25,752 nucleotides of DNA from Deinococcaceae bacterium (GTDB lineage Bacteria > Deinococcota > Deinococci > Deinococcales > Trueperaceae), in contig JBDZWC010000010.1 in the NCBI GenBank assembly GCA_040256005.1, positions 1 through 25,752 of the forward strand, read 5' to 3'. This document shows positions 7,299-24,863 of this stretch, piece after piece (position 1 is the first letter of the stretch; each line of letters begins with the position of its first letter). The notes under the pieces were generated by a model that searched no databases, was not told the origin of the DNA, and saw only the letters and a program-made list of their open reading frames with translations. Both the position numbers and the translations under genes were made by a program.

Positions 7299-7318
7299 CC
7301 GTCTGAGGTGATACGACG

Positions 7319-7356
7319 AGAGCGCACGCCGCGGCATGCCGCCCGGCGTGCGCTCT
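7319..7356 (+). promoter_or_regulatory. Intercistronic stem-loop after the binding-protein gene
   Basis: Perfect 13-bp inverted repeat AGAGCGCACGCCG (7319-7331) / CGGCGTGCGCTCT (7344-7356); no U tract. Confidence 0.7.
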
Positions 7357-7410
7357 GAAGTTCCAGGCGCCCAGGATGTGCGGGCGGGGCACGACCTTCA
7401 CGGAGGAAGG

Positions 7411-8364: not shown

Positions 8365-9245
8365 TGGTCACCTCCACGGGTCCCATCACCAGGCGCGACG
8401 TGCGGGCGGTCACCGAACGCACGCGCCGGCCGCGTCGCCGCGGGCCCATGATCGCCGCCTACGTGATCCTGTCGCTGGGTGCGCTCCTGATGGTCTTCCC
8501 GTTCATCTGGATGCTGCTCTCCTCTTTCAAGGACGCGCGCGAGGTGCTCTCGCCCGGCATCTGGCCCAGCCGTTTCACCCTCACCAACTACATCGAGGTC
8601 GTGACCCGAACGTCCTTCCCGCGCTGGTTCCTCAACAGCCTCATCGTCGCCACGGCGACCACGGCCTCGGTGTTGCTGCTGTGCTCGCTCGTCGGCTACG
8701 TCCTGGCGCGCCTGCGGTTCCCTGGCAAGAACCTGATCTTCATCCTGATCCTCTCGACGCTGATGATCCCGACCGAGATGCTCGTCATCCCCTGGTACGT
8801 GATCTCGAGCCGCTTCGACTGGATCAACACCTACTGGGGCCTCATCTTCCCTGGTCTCATCCCCGGGTTCGGCGTCTTCCTCATGCGGCAGTTCTTCCAG
8901 ACGGTGCCGCGGGACCTGTTCGACGCCGGTCGCATAGATGGGGTGTCAGAGCCAGGGCTCTTCTTCCGCATCGGCCTGCCGTTGGTGGGGCCCGGCTTGG
9001 CGGCTCTCGGCATCTTCTCGTTCATAGGCAACTGGAACGCCTACCTGTGGCCGCTCATCGCCGGGCAGGCACCGTCCATGCGCACGGTACCGGTGGGCAT
9101 CTCGCTCTTCTCCGGTGAGGCGGGAGCCGCCTGGCACCTCATCATGGCGTCGTCGTCACTGGCGATCGTGCCGGTGCTCATCGTCTTCGTGCTGCTCCAA
9201 CGCCAGATCATCGAGGGCGTGGTGCTGACGGGGATCAAGGGGTAG
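8364..9245 (+). CDS. Carbohydrate ABC transporter permease (MalG/UgpE-like)
   Basis: FLMRQFF, DAGRIDG, WNAYLWPL; starts at the TGATG overlap at 8362-8366. The ORF-track extension to 7563 is spurious. Confidence 0.93.
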   Translation: MVTSTGPITRRDVRAVTERTRRPRRRGPMIAAYVILSLGALLMVFPFIWMLLSSFKDAREVLSPGIWPSRFTLTNYIEVVTRTSFPRWFLNSLIVATATTASVLLLCSLVGYVLARLRFPGKNLIFILILSTLMIPTEMLVIPWYVISSRFDWINTYWGLIFPGLIPGFGVFLMRQFFQTVPRDLFDAGRIDGVSEPGLFFRIGLPLVGPGLAALGIFSFIGNWNAYLWPLIAGQAPSMRTVPVGISLFSGEAGAAWHLIMASSSLAIVPVLIVFVLLQRQIIEGVVLTGIKG

Positions 9246-9248
9246 GGC

Positions 9249-9992
9249 TCAACCCGCGCGCTCCAGCCAGTCGTCCACCAGCCGCGCGAGCTGTTCCGTC
9301 ACCTCCCGCGCGATCTCCTCGCCCTTGGCCACGTCTATCTCCGAGACGTTGCCGTGGTACCCGGCGAAGCCCAGCGGCGCCTGACCCCGGCCCACGACCT
9401 GCGCGGCGCCCCGCCACCACGGGGCCTCGTACGGCACGTCTTGCGGTCGCTCCCCCGGCTGTGCCACACCGCGCGGATCCAGCGCCGCCGTGGTCGAGAT
9501 CTCCAGCGGGCCGCCATGCCCGTGGCCGCCCGCGTCGGTGAAGAGGCCGGCGGGGGCCAGGCGCCACCAGTTGCACACGAGGATCGACGCCTCCGGTGAG
9601 CCGGACGTGACCTCCTCAGCGGCCAGTCGCAGGGCGTACTGGTTCTCGCTGTGGCCGTTGAGGACCAGCAGCCGACGGACCCCGAGGCCCACGATGGAGG
9701 CCATCACCTGCGTGACGTAGGCGAGGAACGCCTGCGGCGCCACCGAGACACCCGGGCCGTGGTCGGTCGTGAGGCGCGGCACGAAGGTGTACGCGATCGC
9801 GGGGAACACGAGGCAGTCGCGCCTGTCCGCCAGGCGCCGAGCGAACCCGGTCGCCAGGGTCGTGTCTGTCCCGAAGGGCGCCGCCGGCCCGTGGTACTCG
9901 ATGCTGCCGACGGGCAGGACGCAGAAGGGGGCGTCGGCGAACCGCTGCGCCGCCATGCCACCCAGGTACAGGACGTCCCGTTCCTCGCTCAT
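9249..9992 (-). CDS. Creatininase/creatinine amidohydrolase family protein
   Basis: LPVGSIEYHG...GTD, LNGHSEN, HGGPLEIS metal-binding motifs; 4-nt overlap with the upstream lyase. Confidence 0.88.
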   Translation of the reverse strand: MSEERDVLYLGGMAAQRFADAPFCVLPVGSIEYHGPAAPFGTDTTLATGFARRLADRRDCLVFPAIAYTFVPRLTTDHGPGVSVAPQAFLAYVTQVMASIVGLGVRRLLVLNGHSENQYALRLAAEEVTSGSPEASILVCNWWRLAPAGLFTDAGGHGHGGPLEISTTAALDPRGVAQPGERPQDVPYEAPWWRGAAQVVGRGQAPLGFAGYHGNVSEIDVAKGEEIAREVTEQLARLVDDWLERAG

Positions 9993-11443
9993 GCTCCCGC
10001 GGGCACCCCCGCGTACCCCACGCCACGCAGCGCGGCGATCGCGCGTTCCACGCTCCCGACCCTGGCGCCCAGCGCCTCGGCGTCGGACCCCACCCTCGAC
10101 CTGGCGCGTCTCAGGTTCTCGGCCATGCTCTTCGCAGCCGGCATCCCGAAGCCGGCGCGGCGCTCGACGAAGGCCCGCGGGTCGACCGCTCCCTGCAAGG
10201 CGTCAGACGCCAGCGGCGGGCCGCCGGCCGCAGCCAGGTCGTCCGGTGTGGCCTCCGCCAGGGGGCGCCCCGCGGCCTGCAGCGCGCGGAGGAGGGTCGC
10301 CACGACCCGGTGAGCCCGCGGGAAGTCGAGGCCAGCCTCCCGTACCAGGACGTCGGCCAGCTCGGTTGCCGTCGTGTCGGTCTGGCGAGCGACCTCGGCC
10401 AGCCGCGCCGTGTCGAAGTCACCGCCGCTCACGCAGGCCGACATGAGGTCGAGGGCGCCCATGAGCTGCTTGTGCTGGGCCACCAGCCCGCCCTGTATGT
10501 CCGGCCCGAAGTCGTTGAGGTCGGTGAACGGGATGTTGTGGCTCGAGAAGGTGACCATGGCAGCCGACCCGATGGCGCGCGACAAGCGCGTGCGCACGTG
10601 CTCGAGCGCGACCGGGTTGCGCTTCTGCGGCATTATCGACGACCCCTGCACGAGCCCATCGGGCAGCGCGAACAGGTCCTGGGATGCCCAGGTGAGCAGG
10701 TCGTCCACGACGCGGCCGAGGTTCAACGCCACGCTCTGGCCCACCATGGCCAGGTCGAACTCCCAGTCGGCCGAGGCGACGGCGTCGTACGTGTTCTCTA
10801 CCGGCCCGTCGAAGCCGAGCGCAGCCGCCGTGCGCAGCCTGTCCAAGGGGTGGCTCGTGCCGGCCAGCGCGGCCGCGCCCAGCGGGCAGAGGTTCGCCCT
10901 GTCGTAGGCCTGCAGCAGCCGCTCGGTGTCGCGCGCCAGGAGGTCCTGGGCGGCACCCAGGTAGTGCGCGACCGTCGTGGGTTGGCCCGGGCGATGGTGA
11001 GTGTGCGCGATGAGCACCGTGCCAAGGTGGGCGTCGGCCTTGTCCAACAGCAGGCCGCGCAGCTCGATCAGCGCGGCGCCCAGTCGACTGAGGAGGGTGC
11101 GCCCATGCATCTTGTAGACCGTCATGTCCAGGTCGTTGCGGCTGAGGCCCAGGCGGATGAGCCCGACGGCATCGCCGTGCTTGGCCTCCAGGGCCCGCTG
11201 CATCGCGAAGTAGAGGTCGGGCACGTCCTCCACGTACGGAGGGGCCGGCTCGTCGTGCAAGCGGACGAGCGTTACTCGCAGCTCTCTCCCGGCGGCCAGG
11301 GAGGCGTCGCCGTGCCCTGGGAGCCTGAGCACCTCGTCGAGGTGAGCGGTCATGGCGTCCACGAAGTGGTGTCTTAGGTTCTCGACCGCGAAGCGGTAGT
11401 CGGGAGCCAACACGCGCTGGGAGTAAGCGGAGTGCCAAGCCAT
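9989..11443 (-). CDS. Argininosuccinate lyase-like C-N lyase (fumarase/aspartase superfamily), non-canonical
   Basis: SRND, HTH..P.QP, PLGAAALAGT, GSSIMPQKRNP; ATG 11443 has GGTGG upstream (alternative GTG 11455). Confidence 0.88.
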   Translation of the reverse strand: MAWHSAYSQRVLAPDYRFAVENLRHHFVDAMTAHLDEVLRLPGHGDASLAAGRELRVTLVRLHDEPAPPYVEDVPDLYFAMQRALEAKHGDAVGLIRLGLSRNDLDMTVYKMHGRTLLSRLGAALIELRGLLLDKADAHLGTVLIAHTHHRPGQPTTVAHYLGAAQDLLARDTERLLQAYDRANLCPLGAAALAGTSHPLDRLRTAAALGFDGPVENTYDAVASADWEFDLAMVGQSVALNLGRVVDDLLTWASQDLFALPDGLVQGSSIMPQKRNPVALEHVRTRLSRAIGSAAMVTFSSHNIPFTDLNDFGPDIQGGLVAQHKQLMGALDLMSACVSGGDFDTARLAEVARQTDTTATELADVLVREAGLDFPRAHRVVATLLRALQAAGRPLAEATPDDLAAAGGPPLASDALQGAVDPRAFVERRAGFGMPAAKSMAENLRRARSRVGSDAEALGARVGSVERAIAALRGVGYAGVPAGA

Positions 11444-11497
11444 CGAGCGGACCACCGTCCTTAGGGTTGGCTCACGGTACCCCGCTGGCGGTCCCGC

Positions 11498-12943
11498 TCA
11501 CCACGGCAGGGAGCTGCCTTTCCAGACGGTGCGCGCACGCCTGAGCAGGTCGCGCGTGCGCCAGGCGTTGGGCTCGTGGACTCCTCTCAGCAGCACCCAG
11601 GCGGCCATGCGGCCGATCCCGGAGACGGCGAACAGGGTATGGAACCCGTTCCAGCCCGCCACCGAGTAGTCGAGGCCCTGGAAGGCCGTCAGCAACGGCC
11701 CGGAGAGGGAGCCTCCGGCGAAGCCTGCCAGCCCGGTGATGACCGAGTACGCGGCGATGAAAGACACGCGCCCCACCTTGGGCGCCGTGACGATGGCCAG
11801 GTTGAACAGCGCCAGGCCCACGGCGCCGAACGCGACGGCGTCGCATAGCGCCGCGATCCACACGAAGGTGAGGTTGCCGGTCAGGCCGGCCAGGATCCAG
11901 TTGGTGGGGAGCAGCGCGCCGTGGAGGAACGTGCCGACGGCGAGCATGCTCTTGTTGCCCACCCAGTCGGAGATGCGGCCCCAGCGGCTGGTGGTGAACA
12001 CCGCGGCGGCCGCCGTGATGGAGGTGTAGACGGCGACCTGCGTGAACGACATGCCGAGGCTCTCGAGGAAGTAGGCCGTGGTGAACGGGCCCGAGAGCAT
12101 CACGACGAACTGCCAGAAGACCGCGAAGCGCAGGAAGCGCCTGAAGTTGTCGTTCTTGAGAGGGGCCAGCAACACCGTCCCGAATGGGACGCGCCGCTTC
12201 TCCGTCGGCGGGTCGTGATGGAACAGGATGAGCACAGCGCCGACCAGGGAGCAGACGACGCCCACGAGGATGACGAGCTGGAAGCTGAGGGGCGCGCCCA
12301 CCCGGTCGAGGAACGCACCGGCGGCGAGGTTCGCCACCATGCCGATGAGGCCCATGATCCCGCTGCGCTTGCCGAAGTACCGGCCGCGCCTGTCGGCCGG
12401 GACCACGTCGCCCATCCAGGCGGTCCAGATCGTCGACGTGGCGGCGTTGAAGGTACCGGCCACGAACACGAGTCCCACCAGGATCGTCGGCCTGGCGGCG
12501 TCGGGCACGGGCAGTTGCGGCAGTTGGGCTGCCAGCAGCCAGCACAGCCGCCCCGCCGTCGCCAGCGCAGCGTTGAGGACGCGGCGGCGGCCCACCGCCT
12601 CGGCGATCCAGGCGCCAACCGGGCTGGCCATCTGGGCCAGGAAACCGACGCTGCCCACCATCGCGATGTGGAACGGCGTGGCGCCCAACTGCAGCAGGTA
12701 GCCGATGAGGACTCCGCCCGTGGTCCAGTTGATGAAGACCTGCACGAGCCCGCCCTCGATCAAGGACAGCCGCAGCGTGCGCTCGACCTCGGGTGGCGCC
12801 GGAGCGGGCTCCGACCAGGGCGGTGCGACCGTGGCGCTAGTCGAGTCGTCGCCGGTCTGGTCGGCCACCGCGCCCGAGTGCGTCGCAGGTCGCGCGTCGA
12901 GGGAGGTGTCGTCTATGCCGACGCTGTCGCCGCGAAGTGGCAT
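11498..12943 (-). CDS. MFS transporter (paralog 1)
   Basis: About 12 TM helices; WMGDVVP..RRGRYFG.R and WGRISDWVGNK loop motifs. Confidence 0.92.
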   Translation of the reverse strand: MPLRGDSVGIDDTSLDARPATHSGAVADQTGDDSTSATVAPPWSEPAPAPPEVERTLRLSLIEGGLVQVFINWTTGGVLIGYLLQLGATPFHIAMVGSVGFLAQMASPVGAWIAEAVGRRRVLNAALATAGRLCWLLAAQLPQLPVPDAARPTILVGLVFVAGTFNAATSTIWTAWMGDVVPADRRGRYFGKRSGIMGLIGMVANLAAGAFLDRVGAPLSFQLVILVGVVCSLVGAVLILFHHDPPTEKRRVPFGTVLLAPLKNDNFRRFLRFAVFWQFVVMLSGPFTTAYFLESLGMSFTQVAVYTSITAAAAVFTTSRWGRISDWVGNKSMLAVGTFLHGALLPTNWILAGLTGNLTFVWIAALCDAVAFGAVGLALFNLAIVTAPKVGRVSFIAAYSVITGLAGFAGGSLSGPLLTAFQGLDYSVAGWNGFHTLFAVSGIGRMAAWVLLRGVHEPNAWRTRDLLRRARTVWKGSSLPW

Positions 12944-13017
12944 CGGTCGGGAGTGTAGGCGTCGTCTTGCGGGGTTGTCGGTCGCCCAGCCTGCGGCCCC
13001 CGGCTAGGCGGCTTGCC

Positions 13018-14430
13018 TCAGCGCCACTGCTTGCCGGACACCCGCCAGGCCGTACGCGCCGAGCGCAGCAGGTCCCGAGTGCGCCAGGCGCGCTCCTCGG
13101 ACACCCGCCTGAGCAGGACCCAGGCGAAGACGCGCCCGAGGGCCGAGACCGCGAACAGCGTGTGGTAGCCGGTCCAGTTGGCTGCGAACGAGGGCGCAGG
13201 CAGCGATTGGAACAACGCCAGCAGGGGACTGGAGAGGGCGCCGCCGACGAACCCCGCTACGCCCGTGACGAGCGAGTAACCGGCCACGAACGACACCCGC
13301 CCCTCCTTGGGGGCGGACACCAGGGCCAGGTTGAAGATCGCCGGCGTGATCGCGCCCCAGGCGACGGCGTCGAAGAACGCCGAGATCCAGACGAACGTCA
13401 GGTCGCCCGTCAGCCCCGCGAGGATCCAGTTCGCCGGCAACAGCGCTCCGGCGATGAAGGTGCCTATGGCCAGCACACCCTTGTTGCCCGCGGCGTCCGC
13501 GACCCGGCCCCACAGGGTCGTGGTGGCGAGCGAGGTGAGCGCGGCGATGCTGCTCCAGTAGGCCACCTGCGTGAAGCTCATCGAGAGCTCCTCGAGGAAG
13601 TAGGGCAGGACGAACGGCGCCCCCAGCAGCACCATGAACTGCCAGTAGACGGCGAAGCTCAGGAAGCTGCGGAAGTTGCGGTCGCGGAAGGGCGTCATCA
13701 GGACCGCGAGCGGGGCCACCTGGCGCCGCGGCGTGGGCGGGTCGTAGTGGAGCGACAGCAGCCCGGCGCCCAGCAGAGCGGTGAAGACGCCGACGGCGAT
13801 CACGACCTGGAAGCTGAGCGGTGCCGCGACGGCGTCGAGGAACGCCCCGGCGCCCAAGTTCGCACCCATGCCCACCAGCCCCAACACGCCGGTGCGCAGG
13901 CCGAAGTAGCGGCCCCGCCGGCCCTCTGGCACGACGTCGCCCATCCAGGCCGTCCATACCGTGCCGATCGCCGCCTGGAAGCTGGAGGCCACGAACACGA
14001 GCAGCACGACGACGGTGGGTGCCGCACCGGCGGGCAACCCCATCTGCGGCACGAACGCCGCCACCAGCCACAGAAGCCGTCCGACCACGCTGAGCAGGAC
14101 GCTGAGGCTCCTTCGCCTGCCGAGGACCTCGGCCGCCCACGCGCCCAGCGGGCTGGCGACCTGGGCGAGGAACGGGACGCTGCCCACCAGAGCGATGTGC
14201 GTGGGAGAGGCTCCGAGGGTCAGCAGATAGCCGATGAGGACGCTGCCAGACGTCCAGTTGAGGAACACCTGGACGAGGCTGCCCTCTGCCAGGGAGAGGC
14301 GCATAGTGCGTCGCACGGCGCCTTCCGGGTGCCCGTCGCGATACGACGGCTCCCCGCCGACTTGCGGTGCGGCGTCAGCGGAAGGTGGCTCCCGTTTGCG
14401 GAGGGTGGTGGACGCAGGTGCGCCCGGCAT
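13018..14430 (-). CDS. MFS transporter (paralog 2)
   Basis: Colinear with 11498-12943; WMGDVVPEGRRGRYFGLR, WGRVADAAGNK. Confidence 0.92.
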   Translation of the reverse strand: MPGAPASTTLRKREPPSADAAPQVGGEPSYRDGHPEGAVRRTMRLSLAEGSLVQVFLNWTSGSVLIGYLLTLGASPTHIALVGSVPFLAQVASPLGAWAAEVLGRRRSLSVLLSVVGRLLWLVAAFVPQMGLPAGAAPTVVVLLVFVASSFQAAIGTVWTAWMGDVVPEGRRGRYFGLRTGVLGLVGMGANLGAGAFLDAVAAPLSFQVVIAVGVFTALLGAGLLSLHYDPPTPRRQVAPLAVLMTPFRDRNFRSFLSFAVYWQFMVLLGAPFVLPYFLEELSMSFTQVAYWSSIAALTSLATTTLWGRVADAAGNKGVLAIGTFIAGALLPANWILAGLTGDLTFVWISAFFDAVAWGAITPAIFNLALVSAPKEGRVSFVAGYSLVTGVAGFVGGALSSPLLALFQSLPAPSFAANWTGYHTLFAVSALGRVFAWVLLRRVSEERAWRTRDLLRSARTAWRVSGKQWR

Positions 14431-14915
14431 CAGCCGAGCAGTCTACGCCCTACTCCGTGCCTGAAGCGATGCAGGCGGCAACAAAGTGGCCGGGCCCACT
14501 CGCCCAAGTCCAAGCGGTGAATGCGGCCGGGATGACCGAACGCGGGCGGCCGGCCCAACGTCACAAGCCACGGCGCATCATGTATGGCAGCGAACCGCTG
14601 CACGATGCTATGCGAATCTACGAAGATCCTGCCCAGCTCATCGTGCCTGGCGTCTCCAACTCGAATGAACAACACTCGTGACCGGCTCGCACGGAGCGCT
14701 TCCCTTTCAACAGTTCGGTACCGGATCAGCCTGTCGCCCGTAACGATGATGAGTCCCAACCTGGTGACGCGTGGAATCCAGACAGCGTCCGGGACGGCTC
14801 TGAGGTTTAGCTCTCTACACCTGACGACATCTACACCACCAGCTTCAAGGACATCAGCGAACCGGCCATCGAGGTTCTCGTCAACATAGAACCGCGCACT
14901 AGGCGGCGTACTCAT
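14430..14915 (-). CDS. PIN-like domain toxin (VapC45/DUF5615-like)
   Basis: FYVDENL, PDAVWI, IIVTGDRLIRY..EREAL acidic PIN motifs; 17-nt overlap with the upstream antitoxin. Confidence 0.82.
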   Translation of the reverse strand: MSTPPSARFYVDENLDGRFADVLEAGGVDVVRCRELNLRAVPDAVWIPRVTRLGLIIVTGDRLIRYRTVEREALRASRSRVLFIRVGDARHDELGRIFVDSHSIVQRFAAIHDAPWLVTLGRPPAFGHPGRIHRLDLGEWARPLCCRLHRFRHGVGRRLLG

Positions 14916-15621
14916 AGCGGATGGCGGACGTCACTAGGTGGTGGGCGATGTCGTAGTCGCGCGCGACCTCTTCTGTCGATTCGCCAGCGTCGATGCGAGC
15001 AGCGATCACGCTCGTTTTGATCCCAGTTCCCCTCACTATCGGCCTTCCGAAGGCCACGAACGGCGAGATCGCCACGGGCCTTCGCTCTGGGTCGTGTTCC
15101 ATTCCCGGGAACTCCGGATAGAACCGAACCGGGCCGAAGGCGTCCTCCCGATCTACCCTGCGCAGGTAGCTCTCAACGACATCGCGCAGAGCCACCTGTC
15201 CGGCGCCTGACAGGGACACAAGGTCCCCGAGGTGAGCCAGGAAGATCTGATCTCCAAACGTTGCCAGGTCATGTCGCAACAGCACCCTGGTGACCCCGAG
15301 GTCGCTTTCTGCGAAGCGTACGGCCCTACGGACGGCCTGGAGCCCTACGCCATGTACCTTTCTTAGTTGCTTCACCGCATACAACTCAAGGAGGTCAAGG
15401 AAGCTTAGCCCCCTCGACTTCTCGGTCGGTTCGGTGAGAAGTACGGGTTCATGACCATCTGACCTGCGCCCCTGCACCCACCAGCGCGCGGTTGACGCCG
15501 GTACGCCAATCATGCGACCGGCGTCGGCGAAGGTGTAAAGGGGCGAGTCGACGGGCGACACGCCAGCGTAGAACCGCTCTACCGCGTGGGCGTAGTCAAC
15601 CTGGCCGAGGGTCACTAGCAT
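14899..15621 (-). CDS. HTH + DUF433 antitoxin (VapB45-like)
   Basis: N-terminal PLYTFADAGRMIGVPAST..WW and LSFLDLLE; C-terminal ISPFVAFGRPIVRGTGI...AGES.EEVARDY. GGAGGAGG SD supports ATG 15621 over 15708. Confidence 0.85.
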   Translation of the reverse strand: MLVTLGQVDYAHAVERFYAGVSPVDSPLYTFADAGRMIGVPASTARWWVQGRRSDGHEPVLLTEPTEKSRGLSFLDLLELYAVKQLRKVHGVGLQAVRRAVRFAESDLGVTRVLLRHDLATFGDQIFLAHLGDLVSLSGAGQVALRDVVESYLRRVDREDAFGPVRFYPEFPGMEHDPERRPVAISPFVAFGRPIVRGTGIKTSVIAARIDAGESTEEVARDYDIAHHLVTSAIRYEYAA

Positions 15622-15639
15622 CCACCTCCTCCGTGGGCG

Positions 15640-15713
15640 ATTGTAGGCGCTCGCCGCCGATGGCCAAGCCACATCACGGTGATTGAGAAAGCTTCCTAGG
15701 TCATCCACCGTGA
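15640..15713 (-). promoter_or_regulatory. Candidate TA promoter with upstream inverted-repeat operator
   Basis: TTGGCC (15667-15662), 16 nt, TACAAT (15645-15640); inverted repeat 15674-15686 / 15701-15713 (11 of 13 match). Confidence 0.55.
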
Positions 15714-15744: not shown

Positions 15745-17229
15745 TCACACCTGCACGCCCCCGATGTAGATGGCCTTCTGCTCCAGGTACTCGCTCAGGC
15801 CCTCGGAGCCCGTCTCGCGACCCATGCCGGAGCCCTTGACGCCGCCGAAGGGCGCCTCGGCCGTCACCGGCATCCAGTCGTTGATGGCGACCATGCCCGC
15901 CTCGATGCGCTCGGAGAGCACGAGCGCGGTGTTCAGGTCCTGTGTGAACACGTACGCGGCCAAGCCGGCCTCGTAGGCGTTGGCGCGCTCGATCACCTCG
16001 TCGAGGTCGTTGAAGGAAGCGACCGGCATCACCGGCCCGAACACCTCCTGCGAGTCGAGCGGCATGCCGGGCTGGACGCCGGTGACGACGGTGGGCTCGT
16101 AGAAGTAGCCCTTGCGATCTGGCCGCTTGCCGCCCACGGCGACGCGCGCGCCGGCCGAGGCCGTGGCGGCGACCAGGTCCTCCACCCGCTCGCGCTGCTT
16201 GGCGTTGATGAGCGGGCCCACCATCGCCCCCTCCTCGGTGCCGTGCCCCACCTTCATGCCCTGCATGGCGCCGACGACGGCCCCCGTGAAGTCGTCGGCG
16301 ACGTCCCGGTGCACCAAGAAGCGCTGCGGCGAGATGCACACCTGGCCGGCGTTGCGGACCTTGAAGCGGGCCGCGAGCTTGGCGACACGCTCCAGGTTGG
16401 CAGCGTCCGGCATGACGATGACGGGAGCGTTGCCGCCCAACTCCAGCGCGAGGCGCGTGAGCGTCTTGGAGGCGCCGTCCATGAGGATCTTGCCGACCCG
16501 CACGCTGCCCGTGAACGCCAGCTTGCGCAGGCGCGGGTCGTCGAGCATGGCCTGGCCCATGGCCTCGGGAGCGCCGTTGACGACGTTGATCACGCCGGCT
16601 GGCGCGCCCGACTCCATGAGCGCGTGGCCCAGCAGGAACGCCGAGCGGGGCGTGTACTCGGCCGGCCTGCCCACCACAGTGTTGCCGGCGGCCAGGGCGG
16701 CGGCCCAGGTGCGCACGATGTTGTAGACGGGGAAGTTCCAGGCCGTGATCGTGCCCACCACGCCGAGCGGCTGCGGCACGACCCAGATCCTGCGCTTGGG
16801 CGCGCTGGGCGGCACGATGCGGCCGTACGCCCGCACGCCTTCGCCGGCGAACCACCGCAGGTAGGAGGCGGCCGAGAGCCACTCGCCCTTCGAGTCGCTA
16901 AGCGGCTTGCCTGACTCACCGGTGGTGACGGCGGCCAGGTCGTCGGCATGCGCCTCCACCCAGGCGGCCGCCTTCTCGAGGACGGCGGCGCGCTGGTACG
17001 CCGTGCGACCGGCCCAGTCAGGGAACGCCGCCTGTGCCGCGTCGATCGCCGTGACCACGTCCTCTGCGCCACCGAAGGCCACCTCGTCGATGACCTCCTC
17101 GCTCCCTGGATCGACCAGGTCCCAGGTGCCGCCGCCGCGGGCGTCCACCCACTCCCCGCCGATGAGCATGCGCCGCTGCGGTGCGCCGAAGTCGTTGCCG
17201 TGCGTGCCGGTCTTGTCGCCGTCAGGCAT
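15745..17229 (-). CDS. gabD: NAD(P)-dependent succinate-semialdehyde dehydrogenase family aldehyde dehydrogenase
   Basis: AWNFP, FTGS, LELGGNAP, catalytic Cys in RNAGQVC, EVFGPV, PFGGVKGSGMGRE. Confidence 0.88.
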   Translation of the reverse strand: MPDGDKTGTHGNDFGAPQRRMLIGGEWVDARGGGTWDLVDPGSEEVIDEVAFGGAEDVVTAIDAAQAAFPDWAGRTAYQRAAVLEKAAAWVEAHADDLAAVTTGESGKPLSDSKGEWLSAASYLRWFAGEGVRAYGRIVPPSAPKRRIWVVPQPLGVVGTITAWNFPVYNIVRTWAAALAAGNTVVGRPAEYTPRSAFLLGHALMESGAPAGVINVVNGAPEAMGQAMLDDPRLRKLAFTGSVRVGKILMDGASKTLTRLALELGGNAPVIVMPDAANLERVAKLAARFKVRNAGQVCISPQRFLVHRDVADDFTGAVVGAMQGMKVGHGTEEGAMVGPLINAKQRERVEDLVAATASAGARVAVGGKRPDRKGYFYEPTVVTGVQPGMPLDSQEVFGPVMPVASFNDLDEVIERANAYEAGLAAYVFTQDLNTALVLSERIEAGMVAINDWMPVTAEAPFGGVKGSGMGRETGSEGLSEYLEQKAIYIGGVQV

Positions 17230-18583
17230 GTGTCAGTGTCCCCTTCCCGAGCCTGGCCTCGGCGGCGGCGATCGCCTCGCCGATCACCGCGGTCGCCTCG
17301 TCGATCTGTTCGTCGGTGATGCCCAAGGGCGGCAGGAACCGCAGGCAGTTCGAGTACAGGCCGGCGCGGATGACGATGACGCCGCGAGCGAGCGCCTGCT
17401 TGGTCACCTCGAGGACGAGCTCGGGCCACGGGGTTTTGGCGTCGTCCGTCACGAACTCCACGGCCAGCATCGGCCCCAGCCCGCGTACGTCGCCGATCGA
17501 GGGGTGAGCCTTGGCGAGGTCCTCCAGGCGCGCCCGCAGCCTCGCGCCGACCTCGCGCGCACGGCGCAGGAAGGGCTCGGAGGCGATCTCGTCGAGGGTC
17601 GCCAGCGCCGCCGCGCAGGCCAGCGGGTTGCCCGAGTAGGTGCCACCCAGCCCGCCGGGATGCGGGGCGTCCATGACCTCGGCACGGCCCACGACCGCCG
17701 CTATGGGCATGCCCGAGCCCAGCGACTTCGCCGTCGCCAACAGGTCCGGCGGCGCTCCCAGGTGATCGACTGCCCATAGGCTGCCGGTGCGGCCCATGCC
17801 GCACTGGACCTCGTCGGCGACGAGCACGATGCCGTGCCTGTCGGCGAGGTCCCTCAGCGCCCGCCAGTAGCGTGGGTGCAACGGGACGAACCCGGCCTCG
17901 CCCTGCACCGGTTCCACCACGATGGCTGCGATCGCGGCGGGATCCACCTGGGCGACCATGGCCCTCTCGAGGAACTCGAGTGCCGCGGTCACGTACTGGT
18001 CCTCCGAGAGGCCCTTCGGGCGCCGGAACATGTTGGGGAACGGCAACCGGTAGATCTCGGACGGGAACGGCCCGAAGCCCTTCTTGAACAGGCCGTACTT
18101 GCTGGTCATGCCCAGAGTCATGTTCGTGCGGCCGTGGTAGGCACCCTCGAACACGACGATGGCCTGGCGGCCCGTGTGGGCCCTGGCGATCTTCACGCAG
18201 GTCTCGATGGCCTCGGCGCCGGAGTTGAGCAGGACCGCCTTCTTGGCGAAGTCGCCCGGCGCCAGCTCGCACAGCCGCTCGAGCAGACGTACCTGTGGCT
18301 CGTAGCTGGCGACGATGCCACACATGTGGATCAGGTCCTCGGCCTGCCGCTTGATCGCGTCGACCACGGCGGCCGGCGTGTGGCCGAGGGCCAAAGCGCC
18401 GATCCCGCCGGCCATGTCGATGAGGCGGTTGCCGTCGACGTCTTCGACTACGGCGCCGTGGGCCCTGGCAACGGCTACGTCGGTGAGGCGCGATGCCCCG
18501 CGGGCTCCGGCGGCGTCTCGCCTGGCTGCCAGCTCCAGGCTGCGCGGACCCGGCACGGCTGTCCTGAGGGCGATGCTTGACAA
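17222..18583 (-). CDS. gabT: 4-aminobutyrate aminotransferase (class III PLP enzyme)
   Basis: NSGAEAIE, AYHGRT, EPVQGEAGF, DEVQCGMGRTG, AKSL, GGLGGTYSGNP; TTG start with AGGAGG SD. Confidence 0.93.
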   Translation of the reverse strand: MSSIALRTAVPGPRSLELAARRDAAGARGASRLTDVAVARAHGAVVEDVDGNRLIDMAGGIGALALGHTPAAVVDAIKRQAEDLIHMCGIVASYEPQVRLLERLCELAPGDFAKKAVLLNSGAEAIETCVKIARAHTGRQAIVVFEGAYHGRTNMTLGMTSKYGLFKKGFGPFPSEIYRLPFPNMFRRPKGLSEDQYVTAALEFLERAMVAQVDPAAIAAIVVEPVQGEAGFVPLHPRYWRALRDLADRHGIVLVADEVQCGMGRTGSLWAVDHLGAPPDLLATAKSLGSGMPIAAVVGRAEVMDAPHPGGLGGTYSGNPLACAAALATLDEIASEPFLRRAREVGARLRARLEDLAKAHPSIGDVRGLGPMLAVEFVTDDAKTPWPELVLEVTKQALARGVIVIRAGLYSNCLRFLPPLGITDEQIDEATAVIGEAIAAAEARLGKGTLTHA

Positions 18584-18649: not shown

Positions 18650-19954
18650 CTACAGGACGACCTCGCTGCCATCATAGGCGCGCGGCTTGAGCAGCTCGAG
18701 GACCTCCATGGCCGCCCGGCGACCGCTCTGGAGCGCGCCGTGGACGGTGGCGGCGTCGGCCTCGGGAGCCGTCGCCTCGCCAGCCCACAACACTGGCGGG
18801 GACGGCTGGGCCAGCAGCTCGCGGGCACCCTTGTGCCCCGGCCGCACGTAGCTGTAGCCGCCGCGGGCGAAGGGGTCGCTCACCCAGTCGACCAGTCGAG
18901 CGTCCACGGCCTGCAGACCCGGCCTGCCGAGCTCGCGCCTCAGGCTCTCGAGCGCGTCGTCGAGGGCCTCCTCCTCGCCCCGCCGCAGGAGGTCCATGGC
19001 GGCGTCGCCCGTCACGAAGGCCGTCCACACGACCGCGTCTGTCTCGTGTCCGAACGACGGTGTCCACCACATGGGCGCCCGGCCGGAGGCGTAGATGGCC
19101 TTGACGCCTGGCGGCGTCAACGGCTCGCGGAAGCGGTACACGCACTTGACGGCAGGGCCCATGCCGAGGCCGCGCAGGGCGTTCAGCTTGTCGGCAGGCA
19201 GCCCGGGCGCGAAGTCCACGTCACCCGCTGCCAGCACCCCGACCGGGAGCGTGCAGACGAGCAACTTGGCGTCGTATCGCTCGCCGCCGGCGGTGTAGAC
19301 GCGGACACCCCCTGACTCGAGCTCCACGCGCTCGACGACCGCTTGGGTCCGGATCTCGGCGCCGATGCCCAGCGCCTCCAGCACGGCCCCGTAGCCCTCG
19401 ACGATCCGGAAGTCCTCGTGGCCGGTCTGGGCTGAACCTGCGATGGAGTCGAGCATGCTGGCCGCGTCGAGATGCCGCAGCGACTCGCCGGCCGCGTTCG
19501 CGAACGAGCGGCGCACGTAGTCGACCTGCGCCGACTCGAAGCCGATGCGTTGCAGGTAGAGGCCGAAGGACTCGAGCGGGCGGGCAGGCACGTCGGGCAG
19601 CGCCCACGACCGGGTGACGTCGAACCGCGGATCGGACTCCCTGGCCTCGGCCATCGTGAGCCTGCTGCCGTCCGCCATCCGCACCCACGAGTCGTCGCGC
19701 TTGTTCCAGTGGACGGTGGCGAGGCCCAGGCGCTCGAGCCACTCCCAGGTAGGTGCGCGCTCCCCGTGGACGAACTCGGCGCCGAACTCCAGGGGGAAGC
19801 CGGCGAAGCTCCTATCGGTGTGGACGCGGCCGCCGAGGCGATCCCTGGCCTCGAGCACGACGACGTCCAGCTCGGTGTCAACCAGCGCTTGGGCCGCCGC
19901 CAGGCCTGCCACGCCGGCGCCCAGCACCACGACGTCTGCTGTCTCGATCACCAT
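18650..19954 (-). CDS. Flavin-containing amine oxidase (monoamine/polyamine oxidase family)
   Basis: GAGVAGLAAA, LEARDRLGGRVHT, EFGAEFVHG, W.SDPFARGGYSY, WAGEAT...TVHGALQSG. Confidence 0.92.
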   Translation of the reverse strand: MVIETADVVVLGAGVAGLAAAQALVDTELDVVVLEARDRLGGRVHTDRSFAGFPLEFGAEFVHGERAPTWEWLERLGLATVHWNKRDDSWVRMADGSRLTMAEARESDPRFDVTRSWALPDVPARPLESFGLYLQRIGFESAQVDYVRRSFANAAGESLRHLDAASMLDSIAGSAQTGHEDFRIVEGYGAVLEALGIGAEIRTQAVVERVELESGGVRVYTAGGERYDAKLLVCTLPVGVLAAGDVDFAPGLPADKLNALRGLGMGPAVKCVYRFREPLTPPGVKAIYASGRAPMWWTPSFGHETDAVVWTAFVTGDAAMDLLRRGEEEALDDALESLRRELGRPGLQAVDARLVDWVSDPFARGGYSYVRPGHKGARELLAQPSPPVLWAGEATAPEADAATVHGALQSGRRAAMEVLELLKPRAYDGSEVVL

Positions 19955-19991: not shown

Positions 19992-20762
19992 TCAGGCCTT
20001 CCCGTGTTGAACGGCCACGCGGTGACCGTGGAGCGCGCGGGTCGCAGGCAGAGCCGAGACCGTCTCCGTGCCGCCCTGGGTCCGCGGCCGGCGGACCCGC
20101 CGCAACGAGCGACCCGGCCGGGGCTCGTAGGCCAGGAGCACGGCCGCGTGACCGGCCTTCCACTCGGGGTAGTAGTTCTCGATGATCCCCCGGGCCTCGA
20201 AGCCCCTGTTCAACTGCATGCTCACCGTGGGGTCGTTGAGCCCGCCGGCGATGACGAGCCTGGCGTACTCGGCGGTGCTGAGCGAGTCGCGGTAGCGGTC
20301 GTAGCCCATGAGCATGCCGCCCGCGTACCAGCCGCGCAGGTCCAGGTCGTCGATCAGAGCGAGCCGCGCCTTGTACAGAGCCGACCCGACGCCGTGACGC
20401 TGGTGCGCGGGGTGAACGGCGATCTCGACGCCGTAGAGCCACTCGCCGTCAGGTTCGTGGTTGCGCAGCCCGAAGCTGCCGATCATGTCGTACCAGGCCA
20501 GCGGGGGCTCGTCGGGCGAGCGCGCCGTCAGCATTGTGGAGGCCATCCCGATGACCTTCTCCGCGCCGTCCTCGTACGTGACGGCGACGAACTGGCCCTC
20601 CGGGAAGCGCTCCAGTTGCTCTGCCACGGCCTCGGGGTTGATGCAGTGGCAGTACCTATCGGTGGGGTATCCGTTGGCGAGCCGGATGACGTCATAGACG
20701 CCTTCGGCATGGCGGAGGCGCGTTGGCACCACCGCGAAATCCAGGGGATCCTTGCCTCTCAT
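19992..20762 (-). CDS. GNAT N-acetyltransferase (YkwB-like/nitrilase-associated type)
   Basis: FPEGQFVA, H.PDG.WLYGVEIAVHPAHQRHGVG, EY...V..G.L.DPT.SMQLNRGF. Start placed at ATG 20762; the in-frame extension to 20918 is lower-GC and looks non-coding. Confidence 0.85.
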   Translation of the reverse strand: MRGKDPLDFAVVPTRLRHAEGVYDVIRLANGYPTDRYCHCINPEAVAEQLERFPEGQFVAVTYEDGAEKVIGMASTMLTARSPDEPPLAWYDMIGSFGLRNHEPDGEWLYGVEIAVHPAHQRHGVGSALYKARLALIDDLDLRGWYAGGMLMGYDRYRDSLSTAEYARLVIAGGLNDPTVSMQLNRGFEARGIIENYYPEWKAGHAAVLLAYEPRPGRSLRRVRRPRTQGGTETVSALPATRALHGHRVAVQHGKA

Positions 20763-20763
20763 A

Positions 20764-20946
20764 ACGTTGCTTCTGACAACCAACGCCTGTTGAGGATGTG
20801 AGCCCGTAAAAGGGGGAAACTGAAACGGTCTGGGTCCTATGGAGCCCTGTACCGGAAGAGCTTCTCCACAACCTTTACGCGAGAGTTTCGCCTCCCGAGA
20901 CCATCCACGATGGCTCATTCGGTCTTACTCACACTTTAGGGTTGTC
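20764..20946 (-). ncRNA. Candidate structured cis-regulatory 5' leader (not matched to a riboswitch class I recognise)
   Basis: Six largely nested helices found by eye, several with G-U pairs that work only on the minus strand, plus an alternative hairpin over the translation-initiation region. Confidence 0.45.
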
Positions 20947-20987
20947 TCGAAGTGATCTCACGCTCCTTCTTGCCCGTTTGACAGCGG

Positions 20988-20996
20988 ATGGTAGCA
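20988..20996 (-). promoter_or_regulatory. Candidate extended -10 promoter for the GNAT-oxidase-gabT-gabD operon
   Basis: TGcTACCAT on the minus strand. A second candidate, GTGAGA-17-TAAAGT, has its -10 at 20938-20933. Confidence 0.5.
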
Positions 20997-21063
20997 CGCG
21001 TTTCCGGAAGTGGAGGTTCGCCGCTTCACACGAACGCCGTCTGGAACGCGGTTCTCGAGGGGG

Positions 21064-21092
21064 TTGACAAGCGCGACCACAGACGCTAGAGG
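21064..21092 (+). promoter_or_regulatory. Candidate promoter for potBC
   Basis: TTGACA (21064-21069), 17 nt, TAGAGG (imperfect -10). Confidence 0.4.
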
Positions 21093-21175
21093 TCCGCGGG
21101 CCGCCTGCTGGTCGTCCGGGCGCCCGGGGTAGACTCCGGCCTGATGCTCTTCATGGGCGAGCGGGACGGCGCCTG

Positions 21176-22036
21176 ATGGCGCGGCGGCGCGGCGCAAGCG
21201 GCGATGCCGCCCGCGCCTTCGGGCAGGCGTTGCCCGCCACGTTCTGGCTGGTGGCCTTCTTCCTGCTGCCGCTGATCTTCATCGCCGTGGCGAGCTTCAT
21301 GTCGCGCGGGGCCGGAGGGGCACCGGTACCGCCCGCCACGCTCGACCAGTACGAGCGCACGTTCACGGTCTTCGCGCCCGTCATCTGGCGCAGCATCAGC
21401 GTCGCGCTGCTCACGACGGTGGTGTGCCTGCTCCTGGGCTACCCGCTGGCGTTCTTCATCAGCCGGCGCCGCGACCCCCGCGTACGGCTCCTCCTGCTGT
21501 TCCTGATCATGCTGCCGTTCTGGACGAACTTCCTGGTGCGTACCTACGCCCTCATCACGATCCTGCAGCGCGACGGGCTCCTCAACGGTCTGCTGCAGTC
21601 GCTGGGCGTGATCGCCGAGCCGCTGCAGATGCTGTTCACGCCAGGCGCTGTGCTCGTTGGCCTCGTCTACGGCTACCTGCCGTTCATGGTGCTGCCCATC
21701 TACGCCTCGGTCGAACGGCTCGACATGCGCTACGTGGAGGCAGCCAACGACCTGGGAGCGAACGACCTGCGAGCGTTCTGGCGCGTGGTGTGGCCCCTCA
21801 CCCTCCCGGGCGTGATCGCCGGCTCGATCCTGGTGTTCATCCCCGCCATCGGCGCCTTCGTCACGCCTGACCTGATGGGCGGCACGCGCGGGCTCATGAT
21901 CGGCAACCTGATCCAGAGCCAGTTCGGGGGCCGGGGCAACATCCCGCTCGGCAGCGCCGTGTCGATGGTCCTCCTCGCCCTGGTCTTCGTCGGCGTGCTC
22001 ATCTACACCCGCTGGGGTCAGGAGGAGGACGCGTGA
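21176..22036 (+). CDS. potB: Spermidine/putrescine ABC transporter permease PotB-like
   Basis: LLGYPLA, LPFWTNFLVRTYA, YGYLPFMVLPIY, EAANDLGA, FVTPDLMGG. Confidence 0.9.
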   Translation: MARRRGASGDAARAFGQALPATFWLVAFFLLPLIFIAVASFMSRGAGGAPVPPATLDQYERTFTVFAPVIWRSISVALLTTVVCLLLGYPLAFFISRRRDPRVRLLLLFLIMLPFWTNFLVRTYALITILQRDGLLNGLLQSLGVIAEPLQMLFTPGAVLVGLVYGYLPFMVLPIYASVERLDMRYVEAANDLGANDLRAFWRVVWPLTLPGVIAGSILVFIPAIGAFVTPDLMGGTRGLMIGNLIQSQFGGRGNIPLGSAVSMVLLALVFVGVLIYTRWGQEEDA

Positions 22037-22962
22037 GCGTGCGCACGGCGAGTGGGCCCGCGCGCGACCGGGGCGAGGTCGACAGCGGGCGGCTGCGGCG
22101 CGACCTGGCGATCAGGCGCATCGGACGCGTTCTGCTGTGGGCCTCGCCGTTCGTCGTGTACCTCGTGCTGTGGGTGCCCATCGTGGTGCTGGTGGCGTTC
22201 TCGTTCAACGACGGGGCGTCGGTGTCCGTGTGGAACGGGTTCACCACACGTTGGTACGAGAACATCCTGAAGGGCACCATCACCGCCGGCACGGAGGCCG
22301 CGCGTTTCCAGACCAGCCTGCTGCTCAGCGCCGTCCGGAACTCCGTGTTCGTGGGCGTGGTCTCCACCGTCGTGGCGACGACGCTGGGGACCATGCTGGC
22401 GCTGGCGCTGGGCCGCGGCCGCTTCCCGGGGCGACAGACCCTGAACGCGCTGTTCTACCTGCCCGTCGTGATCCCCGACATCACGCAGGGCGTGTCGCTG
22501 GCGATCTTCTTCAACCTCGTGTTCGACGCCGTCCAGCGGGCGCTGGGCGTGAGGCTGGTACCGGGTTTCGGGACGATAATCATCGCCCACATCGCTTTCA
22601 ACGTCTCGTACGTGCTCATCGTCGTGCGCGCTCGCTTGGCCACCATGGACCCCTCGCTGGAGGAGGCGGCCAGCGACCTGGGCGCGAACCGCTTCCAGGC
22701 GTTCTGGCGCGTGACGTTCCCCATCCTGATGCCGGGGATCCTCGCCGGCGCCCTGCTCGCGTTCACCCTGTCGCTCGACGACTTCGTCATCACGTTCTTC
22801 AACGCCGGCGTGGGCACGACGACCCTGCCGCTCTTCGTCTACGGGATGCTCAAGCAGCGCGTGCCGCCGGAGATCAACGCGATCTCCACGCTGATGATCC
22901 TCGTCTCGATAGTCCTCGTCGGGGCTTCTCTGCTGCTGCAGAGGCGCAGCGCGCGAACCTAG
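22033..22962 (+). CDS. potC: Spermidine/putrescine ABC transporter permease PotC-like
   Basis: FSFN...W.GFTTRWY, LEEAASDLGA, FTLSLDDFVITFF, PEINAIST; GTGA overlap with potB. Confidence 0.9.
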   Translation: MSVRTASGPARDRGEVDSGRLRRDLAIRRIGRVLLWASPFVVYLVLWVPIVVLVAFSFNDGASVSVWNGFTTRWYENILKGTITAGTEAARFQTSLLLSAVRNSVFVGVVSTVVATTLGTMLALALGRGRFPGRQTLNALFYLPVVIPDITQGVSLAIFFNLVFDAVQRALGVRLVPGFGTIIIAHIAFNVSYVLIVVRARLATMDPSLEEAASDLGANRFQAFWRVTFPILMPGILAGALLAFTLSLDDFVITFFNAGVGTTTLPLFVYGMLKQRVPPEINAISTLMILVSIVLVGASLLLQRRSART

Positions 22963-24771
22963 TTACCCCTTGAGGTGACGCTCCAGGAACGCGGCGGTCA
23001 TGCGCAGCCAGGCGACCCAGCCGTCCCGCCCGGGCGGCCCATGACCGGCCTCCTCGTCGACGTAGTACTCGACGGGCACGCCGCGCTCCCGGAGCCGCTC
23101 CACCATCTGGTCGCTCTCCGCCTTGACCACTCGTGGGTCGTTGGCTCCTTGGATCACGAGTAGCGGCGCTCTGACCTGATCGACGTACGTGATGGGCGAG
23201 CGCTCGATGAGCATCTCCCTGTCCTCTTCGGCGTCGCCCACCCAGTCCTTCATGAACGAACGCCAGAACGGCGGCACGCTGCCGACGAACGTGATCAGGT
23301 TCGAGGGGCCCACGATGTCGACGCCCACGGCCCACCTGTCCGGCAGGCGCGTCACCGCCGACAGGGTCGCGAAGCCACCGAACGACCCGCCGAACACGCC
23401 CAGCCGCTCGGCGTCGACCCAGTCCAGCGTCGTGAGGTAGTCGGCCGCCGCCTCTATGTCCCGCAGCTCGCCGCCGCCCCAGTCGCGGTGGATGAGCTTC
23501 TGGTAGCTCTTCCCGTAGCCGGTGGAGCCGCGGATGTTGGGCGCCAGGATGCCTATTCCGCGCGAGAGCAGGTACTGGTAGAGCCCGTAGTAGGCGTAAC
23601 CGGTCAGCTCCTGCGATTCGGGGCCGCCGTGGATCGAGAGGACGACCGGGAACGGCCCCTCGCCACGCGGCCGGTAGAGCCAGGCCGGTACGTCGCGGTC
23701 GAAGCTGGGGTACGCGATGGGCTCCGGGTCCACCATGTCGGCAGGGTCGAGGCCGCCCAGCATGCTCTGCTCGACGGCACGCATGTCACCCGTCCCCAGG
23801 TCGACGAGGAACAGGTTGCCTGCCTCCCGGGGCGTCGCGTAGGCCAGGAGGAGGGTCTTCCCACCCGGATGGACGGACGCGCCGAGCGGCTCGCCGAACG
23901 GCAGGTCGAACCCCGCGACCTCGCGCTCGCCGTCCGCTCCCACGGCGTACGCCTTCACGGCGAACATGCCGCGGTCGTTGACGACCGCCACCAAGACGTC
24001 CCTCGGGTGGTTGAGCAACGCGCCCGCGACGTCGGCATCGAGCCTGAGCACGGAGCGGCGCTCGGAGCCGTCCAGCGGGACATGCGCGAGGTACGTGTAC
24101 TCGTGGTCGGCGTCGGTGAGCACGTAGATGCCGCGGCCGGAGGCGTCCCAACCGACTGGTGAGCGCTTGGCCTCCTCCTCACCGTCGCCCATGACGCACT
24201 TCTTCTCGCCCGTGGCCGTGTTCACGACCCACACCTTGTGGTGCGTGTTGCTGAGGATCTCGCGCACGATGAGCTGCTCCCCGTCGGGCGAGAAGTCGCC
24301 GGCGTAGAACTGGCCACCGGTCATCACGCGCTCCACCGCGCCGCTGGCGAGGTCCATGACCATCGCGTCCTGCTGCATCGGGTCACGGTCGTTCCCCGTG
24401 AAGGCCAGACGGCTCGAGTCAGGCGACCAACTGCCCAGGGTGTACTGAACCTGCGGGGCCGAGGTGACCGACCTGGGCCAGCCACCGACGTCCATGACGT
24501 GTATCTGGAACATCTCGTCGCCGTGGTGGTCGACCATCATGGCGATCCGGCGGCCGTCAGGCGACCACATGAACTCGTTGACCCTGTCCTGGCCCAGGAC
24601 GGTCAGCTGACGGGCGAAGCCGCCCTCGGCCGGTTGGAGCCACACGCCGGGCAAACCCGTGGTGTTCGCCACGTAGGCGAAGGAGTCGCCGCCCGGCGAG
24701 TAGGCCGGCACGCTCAGCGCCCGCACCGCGACGTAGCGCTCGAACTGAGGGAGCTGCAACTCGGTGGACAT
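22963..24771 (-). CDS. S9 family peptidase (acylaminoacyl/dipeptidyl peptidase-like)
   Basis: Beta-propeller WSPDG repeats; [16 protein letters not shown], nucleophile [19 protein letters not shown]. Start ATG 24771 or GTG 24774 follows a TATCGT box. Confidence 0.93.
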
Positions 24772-24817
24772 CACCCAGGACGATAACCGCCCGGCGCAGG
24801 CCGTGGCATACTCGTGG

Positions 24818-24863
24818 CCATCCGTTCCCACCGGGGCGCATCCGAAAGCCCACGACGAGCGTA
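24818..24863 (+). promoter_or_regulatory. Candidate ECF autoregulatory promoter(s)
   Basis: GCATCC (24838-24843)-N16-CGTA (24860-24863), plus overlapping CCATCC (24818-24823)-N18-CCGAA (24842-24846). Confidence 0.55.

Follow-up and report, generated by a model that had tools for sequence, protein, structure and literature searches.

Described RNA elements and the Trueperaceae leader

Among the RNA elements proposed to sense polyamines, a single spermidine riboswitch counts as validated in Salvail et al. 2023 (PMC10853860), where the earlier claims are judged unconvincing and more classes are expected. As described there, this rare SAM-I variant has four stems, is known from 13 Gram-positive examples, acts by transcription termination in front of biosynthetic genes and establishes that RNA can sense a polyamine selectively. 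Other candidate RNAs stand before polyamine or GABA genes, namely the motifs gabT (RF01738, Pseudomonas), potC (RF01751, marine), ldcC, potE (Veillonella) and odc1 (alpha-proteobacteria), and the polyamine-linked orphan motifs in the discovery papers belong to taxa other than the one considered here. A parallel of another kind is the yjdF riboswitch, a translational switch that contains a T-loop and is named for one downstream gene, whose natural ligand is still open according to PMC12641257. Regarding T-loops, bioRxiv 10.1101/2022.12.26.521914 gives YGNRA as the consensus of the FMN and cobalamin riboswitches, and assigns to the receptor a U-ANA terminal loop or a URA/RA internal loop, with a 2-bp auxiliary helix that follows the T-loop stem immediately on its 3' side.

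The leader studied here lies on the minus strand of a contig of 25,752 nt (JBDZWC010000010.1; the window) from a Deinococcaceae bacterium of the Trueperaceae, upstream of a gene for a GNAT-family protein. It is real, and larger than the preliminary description of this DNA had reported. Our main reading, to which we assign a probability of about one half, is that it is a candidate for a new translational riboswitch, of an undescribed class, for an amine of the polyamine pathway. In agreement with the earlier statement that the SAM-I, lysine, glycine, guanidine-I, TPP, FMN, cobalamin and T-box cores are missing, none of the 4227 families of Rfam 15 matched at its gathering threshold; at E values up to 10 there were only three chance matches, all outside the element, and in six homologous loci (E up to 5) a single one, outside the motif. 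These scans led to the rejection of SAM-I, T-box, group I intron and HDV-type ribozyme identities.

The likeness to the described systems is thus partial. With the spermidine riboswitch the leader would share the logic of a riboswitch before polyamine genes, but that identity was rejected, as the leader has neither a SAM-I match nor a terminator and precedes likely catabolic genes. The gabT, potC, ldcC, potE and odc1 motifs have other taxa, genes and architectures, potE and odc1 being set apart by their descriptions only, and yjdF differs in gene and taxa and gives no Rfam match. Two short words around hairpin d (Table 1) presumably resemble the glycine aptamer; the AT-rich lineages of the leader do not preserve the pairing required for this aptamer, and the glycine riboswitch model (RF00504) finds nothing in 41 Trueperaceae genomes, this one included. 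FMN and cobalamin riboswitches (RF00050 and RF00174) are present in all five Trueperaceae genomes tested. The leader shares with them a loop of varying length that fits YGNRA in 40 of the 42 non-redundant representatives and a receptor-like UANA word in 32 of 42 (URNA followed by GU in 41 of 42). Unlike their module, it has one T-loop, not two, and its receptor-like word sits in an internal rather than a terminal loop, with the AC partner of the GU 3 nt from the stem instead of adjacent to it. Neither model matches the leader, which shows no local similarity beyond shuffles to five FMN and four cobalamin riboswitches of the family, and both identities were rejected.

No published description of the leader was found in a search that covered articles outside the large motif lists in the supplements of PMC5737381 and PMC11109978; a text search of PMC11109978 and of one supplement of PMC8632094 gave no match to the motif. 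The leader is therefore likely, although not certain, to be undescribed so far.

Extent, promoter and occurrence

The coordinates of the element, its helices and the neighbouring genes are collected in Table 1. The preliminary description had drawn the leader from 20996 to 20762; its location stands, whereas 20996-20988 is the promoter box and not RNA, and the element itself runs from about 20980 to about 20755, into the first codons. A TGnTAnnnT box lies directly 5' of the motif in 60 of 64 unique homologues, which places the predicted start of transcription at about 20979-20981, rather than near 20926, the start that the same description had named as the one speaking against a leader. A sigma-70 promoter scan that required a -35 box and a terminator scan both returned no sites, the latter revealing no intrinsic terminator in the leader. 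The leader and the beginning of the GNAT gene are spanned by RNA contigs from four studies (four of 23 listed runs). The ends of the listed contigs fall at 20941-20966, and coverage is zero at 21028-21175. Because these contigs carry neither strand nor read ends and have no DNA control, their ends are a weak hint to the start site.

Table 1. Features of the leader and of its neighbouring genes (window coordinates)
Feature	Position	Strand	Content or pairing	Basis
Extended -10 promoter box, TG-n-TACCAT	20988..20996	-		TGnTAnnnT in homologues
Whole conserved RNA element	20755..20980	-	~218-nt 5' UTR and first GNAT codons	alignments A1, A2, A4
Helix P0, 5' strand	20974..20979	-	pairs with 20828-20823; missed in the preliminary description	
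Hairpin with T-loop-like UGARA loop	20949..20966	-		stem and loop conservation
Switch strand a	20940..20946	-	pairs with 20873-20868 (fold X) or 20781-20775 (P1, fold Y)	
C-U-R-N-A loop strand and switch strand b	20927..20939	-	b (20934-20927) pairs with 20885-20879 (fold X) or 20803-20796 (P2, fold Y)	
Variable-length hairpin d	20895..20925	-	holds the previously described GCCAUC/GAUGGU hairpin	
Near-invariant core	20868..20885	-	fold X: 3' strands with G-Y-R-A-A loop strand; fold Y: second hairpin of the preliminary description and P3	
Variable arm	20813..20867	-	purine strand, variable hairpin, P0 3' strand 20828-20823, pyrimidine tract	
3' strands of P3 and P2 (fold Y)	20796..20812	-		two-sided changes in P2
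Terminal hairpin over start codon	20755..20795	-	5' arm shares bases with, or encloses, the 3' strand of P1	
GNAT-family protein, 256 aa	19992..20762	-	AUG 20762	Pfam PF00583
Flavin amine oxidase	18650..19954	-		PF01593, E 1.6e-63
GabT-like class III aminotransferase	17222..18583	-		TIGR00700, 495 bits, just below the 506.65 cut-off
GabD-like aldehyde dehydrogenase	15745..17229	-		TIGR01780 best match, below cut-off
potB/potC-like polyamine ABC permeases, divergent	21176..22962	+		best NCBIfam matches PotB and PotC, below cut-off

In 63 of 64 unique homologues, the AUG at 20762 and the GNAT gene share one frame, the exception starting with TTG, and the N-terminal extension of the protein varies by up to about 40 codons among them. 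The leader, of about 218 nt here, measures 207-470 nt across the representatives. Translation from ATG 20918, which would have made the region coding, is possible in only one of the 42 representatives, where that codon is in frame and open, and that one is this very genome. Since the -10 box and the in-frame AUG bound the element and ATG 20918 lacks support, the element is a 5' UTR. It belongs to the 5' end of the GNAT mRNA that it would regulate, on the same strand, as riboswitches do. A leader-peptide attenuator was rejected, as no short ORF is conserved among the 42 representatives: an internal ATG is missing in 16 of them, and elsewhere the ORFs span 3-46 codons in all three frames.

Of the 25 top-ranking loci within the family, 23 have the leader directly upstream of the GNAT gene, one is cut by a contig end and one lacks the motif; the downstream GNAT itself is present in 34 of 61 related genomes. 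When 15 relatives are compared, identity in the 5' domain exceeds that of the coding sequence in every case, and identity over the whole leader does so in 14, and the DNA upstream of the leader drops to 47-78% identity. An exact 20-base pattern, run over 185,579 genomes, gave 81 stretches, comprising 64 full motifs and 17 chance matches, which were dropped; some of the genomes overlap with those sampled earlier. A same-strand GNAT gene follows 63 of the 64 full motifs, the remaining one ending with its contig, and their taxon labels read Trueperaceae, Truepera or, more broadly, Deinococcota.

A covariance model built on the 5' domain (R1) matches 20860-20971 at 120 bits, as a single site in this genome, and detects the motif in 74 of 128 Trueperaceae genomes, with a single copy in each except for one assembly with two. 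All 74 are among the 84 of these 128 genomes that carry the GNAT gene (by comparison of the two tables). In the ten genomes with GNAT only, the gene is at a contig edge (two), the match is at the level of a paralogue (two), degenerate remnants of the leader are present (three) or, within one genus, there is another leader (three). Outside the family, R1 found nothing in 138 other Deinococcota, with stricter filters, in two further small sets (0/5 and 0/4) or in 23 GNAT-bearing genomes (18 of another phylum and five other Deinococcota), and the exact 20-mer gave no match in viral contigs. A diverged form outside the family could be missed, because R1 scores divergent members of the family at only 38-57 bits and misses two degenerate ones.

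The three degenerate leaders (L209, at 1290-1440, L210 and L211, in genomes G259, G257 and G206) keep the promoter and the T-loop hairpin and have lost the 3' core, thus forming a natural deletion series. In L206 (G251) and L208 (G190) the upper half of the fold X arm is replaced by a variant, and L206 has an AT-rich stretch of about 600 nt between the motif and the GNAT gene, P0 being still complementary. The three loci of one genus (L212-L214, in G252, G254 and G017) keep the GNAT gene and the divergent potB and have another short leader, which looks conserved among these three genomes.

The two halves of the leader belong together, as shown by an unbiased check: a pattern for the 5' half retrieved 56 metagenome loci, of which 51 carry the exact 3' core, three a divergent one, one is cut and one is unrelated. 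The 3' core is invariant by construction in the loci found with the 20-base pattern, and not in L001-L025 or in the metagenome loci. In total there are about 94 distinct motif sequences. The alignments leave out near-duplicates (44 of 64 sequences in A1, 44 of 60 in A2 and 34 in A4), A1 and A4 omitting also most leaders with long inserts, and A1 and A4 contain 40-51 invariant columns, most of them in the 5' domain and loop bases included. Inserts of more than 100 nt are confined to loops and linkers; the variable hairpin within 20813..20867, for instance, ranges from 10 to more than 100 nt.

Two mutually exclusive helix sets

All the stems of the preliminary description lie where it had placed them on the minus strand, and the minimum free energy structure of 20762-20996 holds P1, P2, P3 and both hairpins as it drew them. 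A folding energy above background, on which the proposal had been made to depend, was not observed for the single sequence: the z-score of 20762-20996 is -1.04, 28 of 200 shuffles being as good, and that of the transcript-sized 20745-20980 is -0.97. The core 20936-20794 reaches -2.74 on the minus strand vs -0.96 on the plus strand, in a window picked after seeing the fold. That the leader goes beyond chance is therefore established by the comparison of homologues and not by single-sequence folding energy.

Fold Y comprises P1, P2, P3 and the second of the previously described hairpins. P1, P2 and this hairpin are paired in 95.7% of the alignment cells, with seven two-sided cells that none of 500 shuffles equalled, although no more than two to four lineages contribute the two-sided changes here and below, and the shuffle tests take no account of kinship. 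P2 is paired in 99.5% of cells, with two-sided changes in two of its six pairs (in one lineage G-C becomes A-U, in another U-A becomes C-G), and its one-sided changes give 23 G-U cells vs one unpaired cell. The early proposal of a structured, cis-acting leader on the minus strand is supported. With two-sided changes in both P2 and P1, the absence of covariation that would have spoken against this proposal is not what the homologues show. The pairing of P1 is conserved at about 5 bp, the 7-bp form originally drawn being limited to a few close relatives, and its 3' strand stays 16-24 nt from the AUG despite the inserts. P3 spans 8 bp in this genus and often only 3-4 bp elsewhere. The inner UGUGGAG/CUCCAUA stem had to be given up, since its 3' strand sits in a variable loop and is not conserved. 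The tip of hairpin d, on the other hand, changes in sequence and length while keeping its pairing (81% of cells paired, four of seven pairs with two-sided changes).

The G-U bias of P2 bears on whether the element acts as RNA at all. According to a DNA-level explanation, the region would hold operators for two divergent promoters, or else a coding 5' extension from ATG 20918. The T-loop hairpin is indeed an imperfect palindrome just 3' of the -10 box, kept in the degenerate leaders L209 and L211, and ATG 20918 is in frame in this genome; the spacing of the palindrome varies, however, one-sided changes take the G-U form expected for the minus strand, the variable hairpins stay paired, and the ATG is in frame and open in that one representative only. 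Such explanations are very improbable and already largely refuted.

The pairing of the 5' strand with an internal partner, which the preliminary description had listed as an alternative, is real and is not secondary: it is the RNAalifold consensus, here called fold X. It consists of strand a with 20873-20868, a 5x5 internal loop of C-U-R-N-A against G-Y-R-A-A, and strand b with 20885-20879 around a kept pyrimidine mismatch. Overall 96.4% of its cells are paired, the helix of strand b (99.5%) being near invariant. Its covariation is weak because the fold is nearly invariant (four two-sided cells, 15 of 500 shuffles as high), and one pair of the outer helix is broken in two lineages; the two most divergent members (L206 and L208) still retain this outer arm. 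The 5' domain would be closed by P0, with at most one mismatch in 35 of 42 representatives, a level reached in none of 2000 permutations; it is lost in three sequences and covaries from AAACGG/CCGUUU to AGACGA/UCGUCU, among other changes. In the T-loop-like hairpin, whose geometry is deduced from its sequence, the stem is paired in 98% and 93% of the cells in two counts and has one-sided changes only. Most helices gave a weak signal when a cruder duplex test was applied (P0 172, P1 74 and terminal hairpin 150 of 2000). In sum, P0, P1, P2 and hairpin d combine conserved structure with compensatory change, in few independent lineages, and the conserved unpaired bases and the tertiary-type motif suit an aptamer.

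The two helix sets, X and Y, are mutually exclusive and both conserved. The earlier suggestion of alternative pairings beside the start codon was borne out by the terminal hairpin, which competes with P1 for one strand. Its closing bases pair with codons 1-3; it has at most one mismatch in 36 of 42 representatives, appears in the minimum free energy structure of 20745-20980 and is conserved without a covariation signal, its permutation test not being significant (448 of 2000). In 36 of 42 the UGAG of the start region finds a fully complementary partner, and codon 2 is AGA in 32 of 42, a codon that makes up 2.6% of the Arg codons in a rough count of the genome. A joint change of strand a, of its partner in P1 and of the strand on the AUG side, from CAAC/GUUG/CAAC to CGAC/GUCG/CGAC, is seen in one lineage.

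Forcing fold X or fold Y costs a mean of 3.3 or 3.4 kcal/mol above the ensemble, respectively, in 41 of the 42 representatives (L167 left out). The region from -10 to +8 is unpaired with probability 0.36 in X vs 0.47 in Y and is more open in Y in 33 of 41, although the hairpin necessarily opens once P1 is imposed; for the AUG triplet itself, Y brings no gain in openness over X (0.52 vs 0.53). For most homologues P2 alone comes close to the computed minimum (mean distance 1.2 kcal/mol), so tertiary contacts or a ligand would be required for fold X.

In the mechanism that we propose, the first ~160 bases would form an independent, compact domain, the putative aptamer, with P0 as its closing helix; the T-loop-like hairpin would be part of it, and so would the long fold X arm, whose A-rich internal loop is conserved. 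As long as the aptamer is held, the terminal hairpin would keep the surroundings of the AUG closed. In the released state, strands a and b would pair with the 3' end (P1, P2 and P3; fold Y), and P1 would take the 5' arm of the terminal hairpin, thereby freeing the start of the GNAT gene. That fold X is the ligand-held state of low translation is slightly favoured over the opposite assignment.

The outer X helix could also form together with P2, as a pseudoknot, for which there is room because P3 often has only 3-4 bp; the two folds would then be one. In such a constant fold, the leader would be a self-cleaving or processing-directing RNA, a stability element, or a ribosome recruiter replacing the Shine-Dalgarno sequence, and not a ligand switch. 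This is coherent with the closeness of P2 to the computed minimum, with the short P3, with the lack of a Shine-Dalgarno sequence in 41 of 42 representatives and with an invariant GGAG near the 5' end. Nevertheless, we regard it as rather improbable: the terminal hairpin and P1 are rivals for a single strand and covary in one lineage, no ribozyme family of Rfam matches, and contigs from two of the RNA studies (among those listed, unstranded) run from the leader across the start codon into the coding sequence.

The operon and the possible trigger

As the preliminary description had recognized, a polyamine/GABA-type operon lies behind the leader, with profile matches for GNAT, flavin amine oxidase, GabT-like and GabD-like proteins. 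Among motif loci with sufficient DNA, the oxidase gene comes next after the GNAT gene in 57 of 59, and a divergent potB is present in 62 of 88. Here PotA scores above the TIGR01187 cut-off, potA and potD lying further along the contig. PMC9397018 describes both the acetylation of polyamines and the route from polyamine over GABA, GabT and GabD to succinate. The operon likely breaks down polyamines. By analogy with eukaryotic back-conversion, acetylation would precede oxidation here.

The structural model of the GNAT protein (pLDDT 88) shows no extra domain, the residues after about 215 being of low confidence, and its best structural matches are GNAT-like decarboxylases and N-acetyltransferases, from which no substrate assignment follows; there were no sequence matches in the PDB or NCBIfam. 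GNAT homologues in another phylum also adjoin GabT, GabD or oxidase genes. A Y-C-H-C-I motif at residues 37-41 (~20654-20640) is kept in close relatives and not in distant ones.

The amine- or polyamine-responsiveness put forward initially derives solely from this gene context, from which the ligand would be a small amine of the polyamine/GABA route (putrescine, spermidine, an acetyl-polyamine or GABA). If fold X is the off state, a downstream product would suit as ligand better than imported polyamine, and a ligand that turns expression off fits badly with a catabolic operon induced by its substrate. A more specific version of the riboswitch reading, which we hold only tentatively, is that of a purpose-built class unrelated to SAM-I, in which a candidate aptamer for polyamine, acetyl-polyamine or GABA, braced by a T-loop, would gate the translation of an acetyltransferase-plus-oxidase breakdown route at a start codon without a Shine-Dalgarno sequence.

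Against a riboswitch class stands the association of the leader with one gene, in one family only. Many riboswitches move between genes, and autoregulatory leaders typically have a single gene association. The two folds might be switched by a protein: in the simplest case GNAT would bind fold X and repress its own translation, its substrate or acyl-CoA releasing it, which would reconcile an off state in fold X with induction by substrate. The strict tie to one gene, and the persistence of the motif where the oxidase or potB is absent, speak for this explanation. Conversely, the GNAT homologues of the 23 outsiders lack the motif, one Trueperaceae genus keeps GNAT behind an unrelated leader, the protein model offers no additional domain up to its low-confidence end, and about 50 invariant bases over 220 nt are presumably more than the site of a small protein usually needs. 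A protein trigger is unlikely, albeit the most serious competitor of the ligand-sensing leader.

With its ~94 distinct sequences, a short list of ligands and defined switch mutations, the riboswitch candidate is concrete and testable. Knowing the ligand would, in addition, give a clue to the substrate on which an uncharacterised GNAT family, found beside GabT, GabD or oxidase in two phyla, acts. If a protein is the trigger, the leader would still be an undescribed two-state element at a start codon without a Shine-Dalgarno sequence.

Some observations concern the neighbourhood of the operon. On the plus strand, 21130-21178 holds a -10 box, an ATG 8 nt later and a 10-codon ORF that ends in TGATG over the potB start; this is likely a leaderless uORF coupled to potB, and a TTGACA near 21065-21070 may be the -35 of its promoter. 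The arrangement occurs in nine of 31 potB-bearing loci, all nine of this genus, with an unconserved peptide of 8-12 codons. An S9 peptidase gene occupies 22963-24831. Beyond the window (L112:1185-6201) there are potD, potA, a C45-family hydrolase, a second GNAT paralogue (~41% identical) and a ribokinase; the potD/potA cluster is seen again in L218-L220, with a second class III aminotransferase in two of these loci. On the other side, directly after gabD, a DUF433/HTH gene and a PIN-like gene (14430-15708, minus strand), with a G+C content visibly below that of their neighbours, likely form a toxin-antitoxin pair. Further along are two tandem MFS paralogues (11498-14430), an ABC sugar-type transporter beside creatininase-like and lyase genes (6036-11455) and, at 1-226 on the minus strand, the 5' end of a 23S rRNA gene.
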